Assembly (NCBI GenBank): GCA_052143835.1
Contig: JBKQRV010000067.1
Coordinates: 1,461-65,460 of the forward strand
DNA length: 64,000 bases
Reading direction: 5' to 3'
Origin: Alphaproteobacteria bacterium
Lineage (GTDB): Bacteria > Pseudomonadota > Alphaproteobacteria > JACZXZ01
Positions within the stretch are counted from its first letter, which is position 1, and each line of letters begins with the position of its first letter. Shown here in pieces: positions 30,426 through 35,891 of the stretch. Position numbers and translations under genes: made by a program. Under the pieces are notes generated by a model, which was not told the origin of the DNA, made no database searches, and worked only from the letters and a program-made list of their open reading frames with translations.

Positions 30426-31277
30426 TTAGCCTATCCTGGCGGCTTTGAACAGGCGCTTGGGTGCCCGCAATTCGTCCTGCGCCTCGACGAGGGCGAGCTC
30501 TCTGCTTCGCCTCCGCGCCGTCCTCGTCATCACCGCATGGAGTGCGGAGACGGCATGCTCGAGGGCCAAACGCGCGCTCCGCCGCTTGAGGTAATGGCCG
30601 AGAAAAAGCGCAGCAAAGCAGTCGCCGGCCCCATGTGCCTGCGAGCGTACGGCGGGGCATTCGACAACCCAGGCCGCCTTGGCCTCGACCGCCAGCGTTG
30701 CGACGAGAGCTCGCCCGCCTCTCCCGCCGCCGAGGCCTTTCACCACGATCAGACGAGGGCCGCGGGCAAGCAGGCCGCGCGCGGCGGCAAGGGCCGTGGC
30801 GATGCCGTCGATCTCGCGGCCGGCAAGCCAGCCGAGCTCGAAGGCGTTCGGCAAGAGCATGTCGGCGCGCGCGATGGCGCGGTCGCGGAAGAACTCCGGG
30901 ATGCCGGGGCGCACATAGAGGCCCTTGGCGCTGTCGCCCATGACCGGATCGCAGGCGAAAATTGCCTTCGCGTTCCCCACCTTCACGCGCGCGACGGCGC
31001 TCAAGAGGCTGGTACCGAGGGCGGCGTCGCCGAGATAGCCGCTCAAGACCGCAGCGCAGTGCTGGAAGGCCCCGCACTCGGCGAGCCCGTCGAGCAGCGC
31101 CGCGATTTCCGCGGGGGCCGCGACACTGCCGTGCCAGCGGCCGTAGCCTGGATGGTGGGCGAGCCGCACGGTGTCGATCGGCCACACCTCATGGCCGAGG
31201 CGCTCGAGTGCGAGCCGCGCCGCGCTGTTGCCGACGTGGCCGAAGACGACCGAGGACTGGATGGAGAGCACGTTCAT
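30426..31277 (-). CDS. pdxY: Pyridoxal/pyridoxamine kinase
   Basis: MNVLSIQSSVVFGHVGNSAA, CDPVMGD, GAGDCFAALFLGHYL. Only the 3' 283 codons of track ORF 30426..32438 look real. Confidence 0.9.
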   Translation of the reverse strand: MNVLSIQSSVVFGHVGNSAARLALERLGHEVWPIDTVRLAHHPGYGRWHGSVAAPAEIAALLDGLAECGAFQHCAAVLSGYLGDAALGTSLLSAVARVKVGNAKAIFACDPVMGDSAKGLYVRPGIPEFFRDRAIARADMLLPNAFELGWLAGREIDGIATALAAARGLLARGPRLIVVKGLGGGRGGRALVATLAVEAKAAWVVECPAVRSQAHGAGDCFAALFLGHYLKRRSARLALEHAVSALHAVMTRTARRRSRELALVEAQDELRAPKRLFKAARIG

Positions 31278-31436
31278 AGCGGACGCCGGTCGAGGGGAGT
31301 GCTTTTGCGCCCGAGCTTGCCACGCCGGCGCACGCGCGCGCCAGCTTCTTGCAACAAAGTATCGATCCTTGTTAGGGTCGCGCGAGGCGCCGAGGCAGCG
31401 GCGCACGATCACCGCACGTGTCGAGAGAGATGGAGC

Positions 31437-32321
31437 ATGAGCCAGAGTGCTAAGCCCCGGCGCAGCGTGCTGTACATGCCGGGCTCGAACGCGCGCGCGC
31501 TCGAGAAGGCGCGCACGCTGGCCGCGGACGCGCTCATCCTCGACCTCGAGGACGCGGTCGCCCCCGACGCCAAGGCCTCGGCGCGCGCCGGGATTGCCGC
31601 CGCCCTCGCGGCCGGCGGCTATGGCGGGCGTGAGCTCATCGTGCGCGTGAACGCACTCGATACGCCCTGGGGCTCGGACGACGTCGCCATGGTCGCGCGC
31701 AGCCCCGCCCACGCCATCCTCCTGCCCAAGGTCGAGCGCAGGGTCCAGGTCCAGGAGGTCGAGAAGCGCCTCGAGGCCGCGGGTGCCGCGAGCTCGCTCG
31801 CGATCTGGTGCATGATGGAGACCCCGCTCGGCATGCTCCATGCCGAGGAGATCGCTTCGTCCTCCGCCCGCGTCGGCTGCCTGGTCATGGGCACCTCCGA
31901 TCTCGCCAAGGACCTCCATGCCGCGCACACGCGCGAGCGCCTGCCCCTGCTGACGAGCCTCGGCCTCTGCCTGCTCGCCGCGCGTGCCTTCCGCTTGGCC
32001 ATCCTCGACGGCGTGCATCTCGATCTCGCCGACGACGAGGGCTTTGCCGCGAGCTGCCGGCAGGGGAAGGAGCTCGGCTTCGACGGCAAGACCCTCATCC
32101 ATCCGAAGACGATCGCCGCGGCGAACGAGATCTTCGCGCCCTCGCCCGCGGAGGTCGCCTGGTCGCGCCGCATCATCGCGGCTCACGGCGAGGCGGGGAA
32201 GGGCGTGGTCGTGGTCGACGGCAAGCTGATCGAGAGCCTGCACGTCGAGAGTGCTGCGCGGCTCGTCGCCTTGGCGGACGCGATCCAGGCGCTCGAGGCG
32301 TCCGCCGCGGCCGCGGATTAG
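31437..32321 (+). CDS. HpcH/HpaI aldolase / CitE-like CoA-ester lyase (malyl-/citramalyl-CoA lyase family)
   Basis: RRSVLYMPGSNARALEKARTLAADALILDLEDAV, LIVRVNALDTPWG, KTLIHPKTI. Confidence 0.85.
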   Translation: MSQSAKPRRSVLYMPGSNARALEKARTLAADALILDLEDAVAPDAKASARAGIAAALAAGGYGGRELIVRVNALDTPWGSDDVAMVARSPAHAILLPKVERRVQVQEVEKRLEAAGAASSLAIWCMMETPLGMLHAEEIASSSARVGCLVMGTSDLAKDLHAAHTRERLPLLTSLGLCLLAARAFRLAILDGVHLDLADDEGFAASCRQGKELGFDGKTLIHPKTIAAANEIFAPSPAEVAWSRRIIAAHGEAGKGVVVVDGKLIESLHVESAARLVALADAIQALEASAAAAD

Positions 32322-32332
32322 GGAGCCGCGCC

Positions 32333-33394
32333 ATGGCGGGGGCGAAGACCGCTGCCGGGAATTTCTTCGAGGACTTCCGCCTCGGCCAGGAGCTCGCGCA
32401 CGCGACGCCGCGCACGGTAGGTGCCGGCGATGCGGCACTCTATCTGGCGCTTACCGGCACGCGCTTCGCGCTCAACTCCTCGGACGAGTTCGCGCGTGGT
32501 TGCGGGCTGCCGTGCGCGCCGCTCGACGATCTGCTCGCCTTTCACATCATCTTCGGCAAGACCGTGCCCGACATCTCGCTTAACGCGATCGCCAATCTCG
32601 GCTATGCCGACTGCCGCTTCCTCGCCCCCGTCTATCCAGGCGACACGCTCCAGGCGAAGAGCCGCGTGATCGGGCTCAGGGAGAACGCCAACCGGCAAAG
32701 CGGCATCGTCTATGTGCGCTCGACGGGGACGAATGAGAGCGGCGAGACCGTGCTCGAGTACGTGCGCTGGGTCATGGTGCGCAAGCGCGACGAGGCGGCG
32801 CCGGCGCCGGCTGCCTCGGTGCCCACACTTGCCCGCGCGGTGCCGGCGACGGCACTCGCGCTGCCGGCGGGCTTAGCACTCGAGCGCTACGACTTCGCGC
32901 TCGCCGGCTCGCCCTTCGCCTGGGAGGACTATGCGCCGGGCGAGCGCATCGATCACGTCGACGGCGTCACCATCGAGGAGGCCGAGCACATGATGGCGAC
33001 GCGGCTCTACCAGAACACGGCGCGGGTCCACTTCAACCAGCAGGCCCAAGCGGCCGACCGCTTCGGCCGCCGCCTCGTCTACGGCGGACACATCATGAGC
33101 CTCGCGCGCGCGGCGAGCTTCAACGGCCTCGCCAACGCGGTCAAGATCGCCGCCATCAACGGCGGCCGTCACCTTGCCCCGAGCTTCGCCGGCGACACGA
33201 TCTATGCCTGGAGCGAGGTGCTCGAGCGCTGGGAGATCGCAGGCCGGCGCGATCTCGGCGCGCTGCGCCTGCGCACGCTCGCGACCAAGGAGCGGCGCGC
33301 CGGCGATTTTCCCGACAAGGACGCGCAAGGGAAGTTCGACCCCGCGGTCGTGCTCGAGCTCGACTACACGGTGCTGCTCCCGCGGCGCGGCTGA
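32333..33394 (+). CDS. MaoC-family (double hot-dog) enoyl-CoA hydratase/dehydratase
   Basis: 353 aa; FEDFRLGQEL, NLGYADCRFLAPVYPGDTL, second hot-dog YGGHIMSLA..GGRHLAPSFAGDT. Confidence 0.85.
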   Translation: MAGAKTAAGNFFEDFRLGQELAHATPRTVGAGDAALYLALTGTRFALNSSDEFARGCGLPCAPLDDLLAFHIIFGKTVPDISLNAIANLGYADCRFLAPVYPGDTLQAKSRVIGLRENANRQSGIVYVRSTGTNESGETVLEYVRWVMVRKRDEAAPAPAASVPTLARAVPATALALPAGLALERYDFALAGSPFAWEDYAPGERIDHVDGVTIEEAEHMMATRLYQNTARVHFNQQAQAADRFGRRLVYGGHIMSLARAASFNGLANAVKIAAINGGRHLAPSFAGDTIYAWSEVLERWEIAGRRDLGALRLRTLATKERRAGDFPDKDAQGKFDPAVVLELDYTVLLPRRG

Positions 33395-33408
33395 CGGCCG
33401 CAAAGGCT

Positions 33409-33620
33409 TTCACCACGGAGAACACGGAGGTCACGGAGAAGAGGAGGGAGACTTCGTGTCCTCGTTCTTAAATTCACGACATCAGGAAAACACTCGTCAT
33501 TGCGAGGCGCCCGAAGGGCGCCGAAGCAATCCATATGGGGTTTCGCACCAGACGCGCTGGATTGCTTCGCTGCGCTCGCAATGACGGCTACCTGCAGGCG
33601 AGACAGACCCGTGGTGAAAC
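33409..33620. repeat. Family B element (copy B2) split by a nested Family C insertion
   Basis: Left terminus TCACCACGGAGAACACGGAGGTCACGGAG (33409-33437) and right terminus CCCGTGGTGAAACC (33607-33620) match the B1/B3 termini. C2 sits between them. Confidence 0.7.
33496..33585. repeat. Family C inverted-repeat element, copy C2 (inverted relative to C1)
   Basis: GTCATTGCGAGGCGCCCGAAGGGCGCCGAAGCAATCC...GGATTGCTTCGCTGCGCTCGCAATGAC. Confidence 0.85.
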
Positions 33621-33645
33621 CTTCTGCAGCCGCTCGCCTCGGCTT

Positions 33646-33678
33646 CAAAACGAAACGCCGCGGAGGCGCATCCGCGGC
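33646..33678 (-). terminator. Candidate rho-independent terminator (minus strand)
   Basis: Minus strand reads GCCGCGGA-tgcgcc-TCCGCGGC followed by GTTTCGTTTTG. Confidence 0.45.
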
Positions 33679-33696
33679 GCTCGGAGGCGAAGCCCT

Positions 33697-33768
33697 AAAA
33701 TAAAGTGAGGCGTCAGGAGCGTAAGCGAGAACCCACGCTACGTGTCCGGGCGGGACACTCCTGACGCC
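33697..33768 (-). terminator. Y-shaped hairpin element copy T1 plus T-tract, candidate 3' end of module 1
   Basis: 11-bp outer stem GGCGTCAGGAG/CTCCTGACGCC enclosing two inner hairpins (one is TGTCC-gggcg-GGACA). On the minus strand it is followed by TCACTTTATTTT. Confidence 0.4.
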
Positions 33769-34310
33769 TCTGGAGCCGAAGCCCCATGGCTCGTGAGAGC
33801 GACCCGGCTTCCGGCCGTCTCCCTCCTCGGCAACGCCCCCGTGAAGGGACGCCCCGCCGGAGCGAGGAGCCGTACCCCCCTCGCGGGGGATCGCCAGCGA
33901 AAAGCCCACTCGTCGGCCGCGTCCGGTTCCTCCTGTCGCGTCCCTCCTCCCTTGCGGGAGAATTTTCGCGCCTAGGACCGCAAGGCCCCGAAAGGTCTCG
34001 CGGCCCCCCGTGACGGCCCCGATGGCCCGAAGGCCGCCGACGCCGATCCGGGAAAAGAGCCGGCCAACCGGGAGTTTGACCTCCCGCCTGGGGGCGGTGC
34101 TCCGAAGAGTTCCGTCCTCAAGGCCGGGTAGTGCCGCCCCGAAGGGCCGCATCGCCCCGAAGCTTTCGTCCTCTTGCCCGCCGCCCGAAGTCCCGAAGGG
34201 CCTCGGATGGTTCCGCTTGGGCTTACTCGCTTCGACACTCTCTCGTGCCGTCTAAAGCCTATCTCTTTCAAAGGCACGTTCAATGAAAAAGCGGCTTTCC
34301 TTTGAAAATA
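33769..34310 (-). ncRNA. Candidate large structured RNA, module 1 body (unclassified; transcription not shown)
   Basis: No credible ORF. On the minus strand there are 7 CUUCGG in 423 nt and GNRA-capped stems at 33947-33960 (GCAA) and 33876-33889 (GCGA). Further stems at 34024-34035, 34136-34147, 34069-34086 and 34266-34307. Confidence 0.3.
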
Positions 34311-34333
34311 TCTGTGCGTAGATTTGTCAATTG

Positions 34334-34376
34334 CACACAAGGCTTCCACAAATTCTCCACATGTTTATCCACAAAG
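34334..34376. promoter_or_regulatory. Conserved head block P1 with perfect DnaA-box 9-mer TTATCCACA (34365-34373) and one-mismatch box TTCTCCACA (34353-34361)
   Basis: Ungapped alignment to 35219-35259 gives 30/41 identities, including a 12/12 block TTATCCACAAAG. Confidence 0.5.
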
Positions 34377-34424
34377 ACTATTCAGGCAGTCGAGGCCTCA
34401 AAATTCAACGTCTTGTTATTCAGG

Positions 34425-34640
34425 CACTTACGCTGCGCGTCCGCGCGGGCGAGACACTCCGACGCCCCCAAATCTTTCGCCTGAAATGAAGGCGGCGCCG
34501 GGAGCGTAAGCTGCACTTACGCTGCGTGTCCGGGCGGGAGGGTCCCGATGCCCCAAATCTTTCGCCTAATAAGAAGGCGGCGTCGGGAGCGTAAGCTGCA
34601 CTTACGCTGCGTGTCCGGGCGGGACACTCCCGACGCCGCC
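34425..34640. repeat. Tandem array (period 85-89 bp, ~2.5 units) of the Y-shaped hairpin element (T2c partial, T2b, T2a)
   Basis: CACTTACGCTGCG starts at 34425, 34514 and 34599. T2a 34579-34637 has intact arms GGCGTCGGGAG/CTCCCGACGCC; T2b 34494-34552 is degenerate. Confidence 0.85.
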
Positions 34641-35160
34641 GGGGCCTGGGCGGACCCCGTGCTGAAAGGCCTGCGGCCGCACCGCCGTCGACGCGCGCGC
34701 GCCTCAGGGAGAAGCGCGAGCAGCGGCGAAGCTTGAGGGCCGGGCCTGCCCTGGGCGGAGCAGAACCCGAGCCCGCGGCACGTCACCGTCACGCGAACCG
34801 CTCCCGACGGGAACTCGCGCTCGCGCGCGCGCCCCGTCCAAGCGAAGGAAACCGAGACTCCCGGGCGAGGAGGCGGCCCCCCTAGCCGCCCGCCCCCCGG
34901 CATGCCCTTGGGGCGCCGTGGGGCCGGCGTCAGATCCTCGTTCCGGCACGTCGGCACCCTCTTTTGCCTGGGACCGAGCCTTGCGGATCGGCCCACGCGA
35001 GAGGCTGCCCCGCTTTCTTGCGAAAGCGTCGCCGCGTCCGCTGCGGAACCGCGGTCCCACCCCCGAGGCCGCACGAAGGCGGTTCGCTCAAGGTTCTAAG
35101 ATCGGGCTCCGCTGCGGTGACCTCAGCACCGCCAAGTATAGTGCAGAGCGCGTTGTCGGG
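34641..35160 (-). ncRNA. Candidate structured RNA, module 2 body (unclassified; weaker case than module 1)
   Basis: No credible ORF. Minus-strand CGCUUUC-GCAA-GAAAGCG hairpin (35011-35028) and (GC)n runs at 34690-34703 and 34817-34834. No sequence similarity to module 1 body seen by eye. Confidence 0.2.
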
Positions 35161-35195
35161 CGGCAACGAGAAAAACAAATAATGGTCAAAAATCT

Positions 35196-35259
35196 TGTGA
35201 ATAAATCCAGACTTTCCTCACAGGTCCGCAACAAGTTTTCCACTGTCTTATCCACAAAG
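35196..35259. promoter_or_regulatory. Conserved head block P2 with perfect DnaA-box TTATCCACA (35248-35256), inverted one-mismatch box (35196-35204) and adjacent ~74% A+T stretch
   Basis: TGTGAATAA at 35196-35204 is the complement of TTATTCACA. GAAAAACAAATAATGGTCAAAAATCTTGTGAATAAATCC (35170-35208) is the most AT-rich run in this region. Confidence 0.5.
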
Positions 35260-35371
35260 GGCTCAGTTTCGGCAGGCGCGCCGCAGCCAAGGCCCTTGCT
35301 TGTCTTGGATTTGTGCGGGGGAACTTCGGTTGGCGCGTGGCCGCCATGCGCTTTTGCTGCGGCGCGGAAGA

Positions 35372-35400
35372 TTGACTTAGGCGGTGCGGCGGCCTAGAAA
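35372..35400 (+). promoter_or_regulatory. Candidate sigma70-type promoter for sdhCDAB
   Basis: TTGACT (35372-35377), 17-nt spacer, TAGAAA (35395-35400), ~93 nt upstream of the sdhC ATG. Motif match only. Confidence 0.3.
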
Positions 35401-35492
35401 GCTTTCGGACGATCTAGCGGGCGTCCCCTCGCCCGCACGCGACCGGGCGCATCCGTGCTCGGCTCGCCGACCATGCCCATGTAGGCGCGCTC

Positions 35493-35891
35493 ATGACCGC
35501 TCGGAACAGGCCGCTCTCCCCTCATTTGCAGATCTACCGGCCGCAGCTGACCTCGCTGCTCTCGATCACCCATAGGGCGACCGGCATCGCCCTCGTGGCG
35601 GGCGCCTTCCTCCTCGTCTGGTGGATCGCCGCCCTCGTGCGCGGCCCGGCCTCCTTTGCGCTCTTCCAGCACTTCATCGCCTCGTTCCTCGGCCGGCTCC
35701 TTCTCTTCGGCTGGACGTGGGCGCTTTTCTACCATTTGGCCAACGGCATTCGCCATCTCTCGTGGGACGCCGGCTGGGGCTACGAGCTCGAGAGCACCTA
35801 CGCGAGCGGCTGGTTCGTGGTCGCCGCCTCGACGGTCTTGACGCTCGTCGCCTGGTCGATCGGCTACGTCATGCTGGGAGGGCACGGATGA
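35493..35891 (+). CDS. sdhC: Succinate dehydrogenase cytochrome b556 subunit
   Basis: RPLSPHLQIYRPQLTSLLSITHRATG. Confidence 0.95.
   Translation: MTARNRPLSPHLQIYRPQLTSLLSITHRATGIALVAGAFLLVWWIAALVRGPASFALFQHFIASFLGRLLLFGWTWALFYHLANGIRHLSWDAGWGYELESTYASGWFVVAASTVLTLVAWSIGYVMLGGHG

Follow-up and report, generated by a model that had tools for sequence, protein, structure and literature searches.

Putative DnaA-controlled heads of a large structured RNA family in soil and marine Alphaproteobacteria

The window analysed here is a 64-kb stretch of DNA from an Alphaproteobacteria bacterium (contig JBKQRV010000067.1). Upstream of its sdhCDAB operon lie two short segments, the heads P1 and P2, each of which carries an array of sites resembling the binding site (box) of the replication initiator DnaA and each of which adjoins a predicted structured RNA on the minus strand (RNA-A and RNA-B, respectively). 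Judged from their sequence, the two heads are probably a DnaA-controlled upstream region of an undescribed family of large structured non-coding RNAs (ncRNAs), and many soil and marine Alphaproteobacteria seem to link such an RNA to DnaA in this way. DnaA-dependent transcriptional control had been proposed in an earlier, sequence-only reading of the window and is still the best-supported reading of the locus, but the modules had been drawn the wrong way round: the heads belong to the GC-rich body on their left, that of a leftward, minus-strand RNA.

Perfect and double DnaA boxes in the window

A DnaA box is defined here as a 9-mer fitting TTATNCACA, with TTATCCACA as the high-affinity consensus. 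Throughout the window TTATCCACA is present only as the distal boxes of P1 and P2, both on the plus strand (Table 1), as had been claimed; the mean in shuffled sequence is 0.05, and none of 100 dinucleotide shuffles contained two copies. The G+C content that had been assumed for the window, about 65%, is measured at 68.0%.

Double DnaA boxes were sought as a box with at most two mismatches located 2–3 bp upstream of a box with at most one mismatch. There are two in the window, one in P1 (TTCTCCACA-tgt-TTATCCACA) and one in P2 (TTTTCCACT-gtc-TTATCCACA), and there were none in 100 dinucleotide shuffles. Each perfect box is the downstream half of its pair. Stringer, Fitzgerald & Wade (2024, PMC11317965) showed for E. 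coli, using chromatin immunoprecipitation with sequencing and mutagenesis, that DnaA in vivo binds almost only double boxes, typically a perfect box with a 7/9 box at a distance of 3 bp. The P1 and P2 pairs, a 7–8/9 box and a perfect box 2–3 bp apart, fit this in vivo rule exactly.

Architecture of the two arrays

On the plus strand both heads begin with an inverted box (TGTG start at 34313 and 35196), followed by a 9-nucleotide (nt) gap and four same-strand 9-mers ending in (C)ACA. The gaps between the same-strand boxes are 2, 2 and 3 nt in P1 and in P2, and the last 9-mer is the perfect box, so that each head contains five boxes (Table 1). The earlier reading had described a single block conserved between the heads; instead, the whole architecture is common to P1 and P2. 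The coordinates and counts of that reading are all correct. Recomputation of the ungapped alignment of 34336-34376 with 35219-35259 again gives 30/41 identities with TTATCCACAAAG as the longest run, TTCTCCACA and TTTTCCACT lie where they had been placed, and the A+T run at 35170-35208, put at about 74%, is measured at 74.4%. The inverted TGTGAATAA in P2 was also correctly located but understated as a one-mismatch box: to the degenerate consensus TTATNCACA it has zero mismatches.

Table 1. Coordinates of the arrays, predicted RNAs, putative promoters and 3′ elements in the window.
Feature	Coordinates	Strand	Remarks
RNA-A, predicted structured ncRNA, ~550 nt	33697..34249	-	5′ end placed at the start of conservation
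RNA-A Y-shaped 3′ element: outer stem GAGGCGUCAGG/CCUGACGCCUC and two inner hairpins, then ACUUUAUUUU	33707..33770	-	
Putative RNA-A promoter: -35 TTGAAC (34283-34278), 16-nt spacer, -10 TAGGCT (34261-34256)	34256..34283	-	position conserved in alignment
P1 proximal inverted box CTACGCACA, 2 mismatches	34313..34321	-	9 nt from box 1, 29 nt from RNA-A -35
P1 box 1 TTGCACACA, weak	34331..34339	+	
P1 box 2 GCTTCCACA, weak	34342..34350	+	CCACA half retained
P1 box 3 TTCTCCACA, 8/9	34353..34361	+	3 bp from perfect box, double DnaA box partner
P1 distal perfect DnaA box TTATCCACA	34365..34373	+	orthologues invariant or TTATGCACA
Extra 3′ element copies behind RNA-B, degenerate and in tandem (85-nt period)	34424..34554	-	34479-34554 scores 43 bits
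RNA-B, second predicted structured RNA, ~570 nt	34564..35133	-	body unalignable with RNA-A; head and 3′ element in common; Y element 34576-34640
Putative RNA-B promoter: -35 TTGCCG (35166-35161), 17-nt spacer, -10 CACTAT (35143-35138)	35138..35166	-	
P2 proximal inverted box TTATTCACA, perfect fit to TTATNCACA	35196..35204	-	29 nt from RNA-B -35
P2 box 1 TTCCTCACA, weak	35214..35222	+	
P2 box 2 TCCGCAACA, weak	35225..35233	+	
P2 box 3 TTTTCCACT, 7/9	35236..35244	+	3 bp from perfect box
P2 distal perfect DnaA box TTATCCACA	35248..35256	+	invariant in L006-L008
sdhC sigma-70-type promoter TTGACT-N17-TAGAAA	35372..35400	+	invariant in 4 metagenome-assembled genomes; outside array, ~120 nt past distal box

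Conservation of the arrays across lineages

The nearest genomes are metagenome-assembled genomes (MAGs) from uncultured soil bacteria, labelled "Alphaproteobacteria bacterium", whose SdhC identities to the window are 97% (locus L006), 95% (L007), 81% (L008) and 74% (L010); identical SdhC is encoded on contigs from soil metagenomes. In at least 15 lineages the same array layout precedes sdhC by 166-430 nt and has the same strand as that gene; the distant ones are labelled Rhodospirillales, Kiloniellales, Rhodospirillaceae and Stellaceae. In these distant lineages the inverted box is TGTG(A/T/C)ATAA and the distal box is mostly TTATCCACA. Altogether 16 perfect TTATCCACA boxes occur in 812 kb of sdhC loci, 15 of them within 1300 nt upstream of sdhC. 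From inverted to perfect box the gap is either of a 31-nt or of a 43-nt size class, the difference being one box unit.

Variation between lineages is of the kind known for DnaA boxes: the fifth box base may be C, G, A or T, the known degeneracy of TTATNCACA, and TTAT and CACA are retained. In relatives the boxes stay constant while the spacers drift. The possibility raised earlier, that the block is simply part of a repeat family present at many loci with no conservation of the boxes, is not borne out, the boxes being the conserved part.

A variant head is found in L089, L103, L105, L106, L111 and L016, where the proximal site is TGTTGACAA, the run of TCCACA boxes is longer and a terminal palindrome, TTATGCACA-gca-TGTGGATAT, amounts to two boxes facing each other. 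The sole cultured match with a perfect box upstream of sdhC, Tistlia consotensis (L020), has no clear inverted box and no 3′ element of the kind described below on a contig that ends 1051 nt upstream; this species cannot yet be named as a cultured carrier.

Arrays of this form need not belong to DnaA. A different transcription factor, for example an OmpR-type response regulator, could recognize (T)NCACA direct repeats with an 11–12 bp period, in which case the fit to the DnaA consensus would be a coincidence. Winged-helix response regulators typically bind direct repeats in helical phase, CACA is the main part conserved in the middle sites, and in some lineages the proximal site is TGTTGA(C/T)AA. 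Against such a factor, it is the full 9-mer TTATCCACA that is best conserved, its variation is concentrated at the degenerate fifth position, the array comes with an inverted box of full consensus, and the spacing of the sites equals the double-DnaA-box rule (PMC11317965). A literature search found no other alphaproteobacterial factor with the array motif. To our knowledge, no such factor has been described, and we regard a non-DnaA protein as unlikely.

Two predicted structured RNA genes on the minus strand

When the window is aligned with L006-L008, the whole non-coding stretch proves to be highly conserved and contains two GC-rich blocks, both of which open on the plus strand with a three-way hairpin element of about 65 nt. 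The first of these, block A, folds far better on the minus strand, and its G-U pairs there are C-A mismatches on the plus strand (212 versus 72 G-U cells between the strands). The consensus of RNA-A from eight distinct homologues has 188 predicted pairs, with 93.7% of cells paired. Compensatory changes are found in 59 of these 188 pairs, against 28.3±3.6 in column shuffles (none of 500 reaches 59), a control inflated by relatedness, and against 10–23 in slid controls, which are the more reliable. Consensus folding energies agree on the strand: -254 kcal/mol sense versus -152 antisense for RNA-A and -290 versus -240 for RNA-B. For the marine group, too, the sense strand folds better (-151 versus -125 kcal/mol). 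Conservation on the RNA strand begins at GGCACG (34249) for RNA-A and at GGCGGUGC (35133) for RNA-B, whose transcript would run from about 35131 to about 34564.

Both genes are predicted to be non-coding. No codon-position G+C signal is present across the 2.1 kb from 33395 to 35492, the RNA-A alignment contains no conserved open reading frame (ORF), and the five longest ORFs have no Pfam match. A tRNA and tmRNA scan found none. Searches with the Rfam 15 covariance models, on 7 kb at E<=1 and on the RNAs themselves (1.55 kb) at E<=10, gave no credible match, only chance microRNA matches, and nothing reached gathering score in 10 related loci. The bodies of RNA-A and RNA-B are treated as different RNAs because nhmmer aligns only the first ~78 nt on the plus strand, which correspond to the 3′ element.

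The 3′ element is Y-shaped. In the RNA sense it consists of GAGGCGUCAGG, the hairpin GUGUCCCGCCCGGACAC, a second hairpin and CCUGACGCCUC, and its covariance model scores 90.5 bits on the minus strand versus 30.8 on the plus strand. The model also matches upstream of sdhC in L022, L043, L024 and L055. From soil to marine representatives (the window, L009, L016, L066, L073, L086 and L101) the outer stem GAGGCGUCAGG/CCUGACGCCUC and the hairpin GUGUCCCGCCCGGACAC are nearly invariant in sequence, and the second inner hairpin covaries. The element looks like a terminator in soil lineages, where U-tracts such as U7 in L009 follow it, and has none after it in the marine group; it is therefore more than a terminator, which suggests a recognition site for a protein or another RNA. 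The number of tandem extra copies behind RNA-B differs between close relatives, the window having one unit more than L006 and L007.

A terminator consensus scan of 33300-35600 returned weak terminator-like sites only, among them one on the minus strand at 33655-33669. The latter, situated past the mch stop codon and before the RNA-A end is reached, consists of a GC hairpin and then UUUCGUUUU; it may serve as a bidirectional terminator or as a back-up one.

The arrays are linked to the RNA rather than to sdhC

An independent set of loci was obtained without reference to boxes or to sdhC: 31 metagenome loci were fetched by the 3′-element pattern alone, and 28 of the RNA genes in them had 800 nt of flank or more. 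In 23 of these 28 a perfect, correctly oriented TTATNCACA lies 540-800 nt from the 3′ element, and in all 28 there is a site within one mismatch, against a background of 0.05 perfect boxes per kb elsewhere in the same loci with both strands counted. The sequence past the array, at least 2 kb in L086, L095, L096 and L101 and 1.7 kb in L102, contains no sdhC. L086, L095, L096 and L102 have about 60% G+C and are probably marine; their RNA unit has a short-chain dehydrogenase gene on one side and a liv-type ABC transporter operon on the other, with the array abutting the 3′ end of the liv-type gene. In L101 the unit adjoins a pfk gene, whose 3′ end the array abuts. Because loci retrieved by the RNA carry the boxes, several of them with no sdhC nearby, the array travels with the RNA and not with sdhC.

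These loci bear directly on the proposal that the arrays control sdhCDAB, with DnaA or another factor tying tricarboxylic acid cycle and respiratory capacity to the cell cycle. The recurrent position of the arrays upstream of sdhC, in its orientation, and the concentration of perfect boxes there favour this proposal, and an sdhC regulon element was our first idea, based on boxes at -200 to -390 in many sdhC loci; it was dropped as the main reading after the RNA-linked loci without sdhC were found. Within the window, RNA-B separates P1 from sdhC, which is about 1.1 kb away. The distance from array to sdhC is variable, whereas that from array to the RNA promoter is fixed (see below), and sdhC has a conserved promoter of its own (Table 1), with a counterpart, TTGACTT-N16-17-CTAAAT, in L022, L024, L043 and L055. 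Control of sdh, which had been put forward as a possibility, would be a side effect at most, and as the function of the arrays it is distinctly unlikely.

A fixed register with putative RNA promoters

Both RNA starts are preceded by a YANNAT hexamer, a spacer of 16-17 nt and a TTGNNN hexamer with T-tracts, which in RNA-A lie upstream of the -35 hexamer; we take these to be putative promoters. The distance from the -35 hexamer to the proximal inverted box is 29 nt in both units of the window (WIN-A and WIN-B) and in L010, L021, L043, L089 and L095, and 28 nt in L009. An extra perfect TTATTCACA lies within the putative promoter spacer of the marine-type RNA of L086 (6141-6149, numbered in the orientation of the window); it is not conserved in L095 or L102.

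Read outward from the RNA start, the layout would be a weak -10 and a TTGNNN -35 flanked by T/A tracts that resemble an UP element; 29 nt past the -35, one DnaA box aimed at the promoter; and, after a 9-nt gap, two to four boxes of the opposite orientation spaced 2-3 bp apart, of which the outermost or next-to-outermost is the perfect, high-affinity site. We infer that the binder is DnaA, and likewise the direction of regulation. DnaA would first dock on the perfect box. From there, in the way known for the low-affinity arrays of oriC, DnaA-ATP would cooperatively occupy the weaker boxes, which are in helical phase, and so advance toward the promoter. The oligomer formed in this way would end at about -65 to -73, beside the A/T tract, and would set the rate of transcription of the ~550-nt RNA, with RNA-A driven from P1 and RNA-B from P2. 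If the oligomer acts in this manner, the output of the RNA would therefore track the level of DnaA-ATP, that is, the replication-initiation status of the cell.

Several points weigh against this proposal. Caulobacter, itself an alphaproteobacterium, uses non-consensus boxes at its origin, and the box preference of DnaA in the host lineages is consequently an assumption. In P1 the proximal box deviates at two positions, and little beyond CACA is retained in the middle boxes. A consensus sigma-70 scan of 33300-35600 gave no promoter-like site, the RNA -10 hexamers are weak, and the transcription start is placed solely by the onset of conservation. The relatedness that inflates the shuffle control of the covariation also belongs here. 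Finally, the array is frequently paired divergently with sdhCDAB and may also, or instead, act on sdh.

The arrays could also work as DNA. In that case they would be DnaA-regulatory loci for titration or nucleotide-state switching, like datA and DARS in E. coli or the DnaA-box clusters of B. subtilis, and transcription of the RNA would be incidental or modulatory. A conserved non-coding cluster of five boxes in phase, one of them perfect, would suit such a locus, as would the two tandem clusters of the soil clade, and the double-box arrangement is also found at DARS2 (PMC11317965). For a pure titration site, neither the fixed 29-nt register with the RNA -35 nor the strict co-inheritance with a highly structured RNA would be expected, and five sites make a small reservoir. 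As the main role of the arrays, action on DnaA is rather unlikely; it is compatible with a DnaA-controlled RNA promoter, the two not being mutually exclusive.

A broader and more tentative proposal combines these elements. The sequences may define a hitherto unrecognised class of structured RNAs of ~550-700 nt, widespread in soil and marine Alphaproteobacteria, that is hard-wired to the initiator by a miniature oriC-like DnaA assembly site in promoter register. The RNA might then be a direct output of the DnaA-ATP cycle, either as an RNA effector or as part of an RNA-coupled device of the DARS/datA type. If so, replication initiation would be coupled through the RNA to some other process; since sdhCDAB is so often its partner, this could be central metabolism.

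A replication origin is not supported

A relic or accessory replication origin had been offered as an alternative function of the boxes. A DnaA-box cluster whose end boxes are oppositely oriented does resemble the DnaA-assembly region of oriC, and the 74% A+T stretch lies beside P2. Against an origin, two tandem copies lie within one intergenic region, and the neighbouring genes vary between lineages (sdhC, liv, pfk). The AT-richness of the 29-nt stretch is not conserved: in L021, L043 and L073 it is GC-rich, and only short T/A tracts by the -35 and the box are retained. Cumulative GC skew (window 1-40000) climbs to a local maximum at ~31-33 kb, beside the locus, and then drops until ~40 kb, whereas an origin would show a minimum; the 64-kb window is short for this analysis, and the evidence of skew is correspondingly weak. 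The conserved flank is a structured RNA and not an unwinding element, and searches for relatives on plasmids or in viruses were empty: neither RNA unit, head included, had a BLAST match among PLSDB plasmids, and a 3′-element pattern scan of viral contigs gave 0 matches. An origin, relic or accessory, is left unsupported by these results and is highly improbable.

Gene neighbourhood

The non-coding stretch (33395-35492) is flanked by a mesaconyl-CoA-hydratase-like gene (31808-33394, plus strand) and by sdhCDAB (sdhC start at 35493, plus strand). The region upstream of the locus, 30537-33394, carries malyl-CoA-lyase-like (HpcH) and mesaconyl-CoA-hydratase-like genes, and long overlapping ORFs on several frames, typical high-GC artefacts, are also present there. 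Other members of the soil clade, such as L097, have the same order of HpcH-family gene, RNA(s) and sdhCDAB. A conserved inverted repeat with 22-nt arms is located at 35277-35366, between the P2 array and the sdhC promoter. An insertion at 33478-33582 (CATTGCGAGGCGCCCGAAGG...GCAATCCA / TGGATTGCTTCGC...CGCAATG), palindromic in the manner of repetitive extragenic palindromic (REP) elements, is absent at that position in L006-L008.

Significance

The genes that DnaA is known to control as a transcription factor are few and encode proteins. A literature search on DnaA boxes with sdhC, ncRNA or Alphaproteobacteria found no description of the P1/P2 locus and no conserved DnaA-box array dedicated to a large structured RNA. 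We know of no such array as described. If DnaA binds, the locus would be a compact natural reporter of DnaA-ATP status for a large section of the Alphaproteobacteria, most of it uncultured. It would also provide a first lead to the function of an RNA family that lacks annotation, is conserved in soil and ocean lineages alike and has paralogous versions with different bodies. The RNA family fills an otherwise puzzling gap of 1-2 kb upstream of sdhCDAB, and its arrays caution against calling origins in MAGs from DnaA-box clusters alone.

Comparison with known systems

The closest parallels to the arrays are the double DnaA boxes of E. coli at the nrdA, mioC, purH and polA promoters and at DARS2, which, like those of P1 and P2, are same-strand 9-mers 2-3 bp apart, one perfect and one 7-8/9, upstream of a promoter (PMC11317965). 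In P1 and P2 this pattern is extended to a 4+1 array with an inverted box that is conserved across several alphaproteobacterial groups, and the array stands in a fixed register with the putative promoter of a large ncRNA rather than of a protein gene. At oriC of E. coli the high-affinity end boxes are in opposite orientation and the arrays of low-affinity sites are spaced 2 bp apart. P1 and P2 resemble it in having a perfect anchor, weaker same-orientation sites at an 11-12 bp period and an opposed box at the far end; they differ from it in lacking a conserved unwinding element, an origin-type GC skew and an origin gene context, in occurring as two tandem copies and in being always attached to an RNA gene.

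Chromosomal clusters of boxes outside the origin and in non-coding DNA are known from datA and DARS1/2 in E. coli and from B. subtilis. P1 and P2 are of this general kind but have no sequence relationship to those clusters and are set in a fixed register with a putative promoter. Checkpoint and cell-cycle genes activated by DnaA include sda of B. subtilis and gcrA of Caulobacter, and the Caulobacter RNA CcnA is driven by CtrA, not via DnaA-box arrays. CcnA is an ncRNA timed by the cell cycle (PMC8959179). Like sda, gcrA and CcnA, the RNA genes of the window would be expressed under the direct control of a master factor of replication or the cell cycle, exerted at sites upstream of the promoter; the product of these RNA genes is, in contrast, a highly structured RNA of ~550 nt and not a small protein or a short base-pairing RNA.

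Among large structured bacterial ncRNAs, OLE, GOLLD, ROOL and raiA have functions that are either unassigned or only recently emerging. None of these or similar large RNAs is known to us to have a DnaA-box array. Like them, RNA-A and RNA-B are ~550-600 nt in length, contain numerous covarying helices that end in UUCG or GNRA loops and appear to be stand-alone genes, with a putative promoter and terminator of their own. They differ in matching no Rfam model, in being carried by Alphaproteobacteria and in combining a conserved head and a conserved Y-shaped 3′ element with a body in the middle that varies (A, B and marine types).

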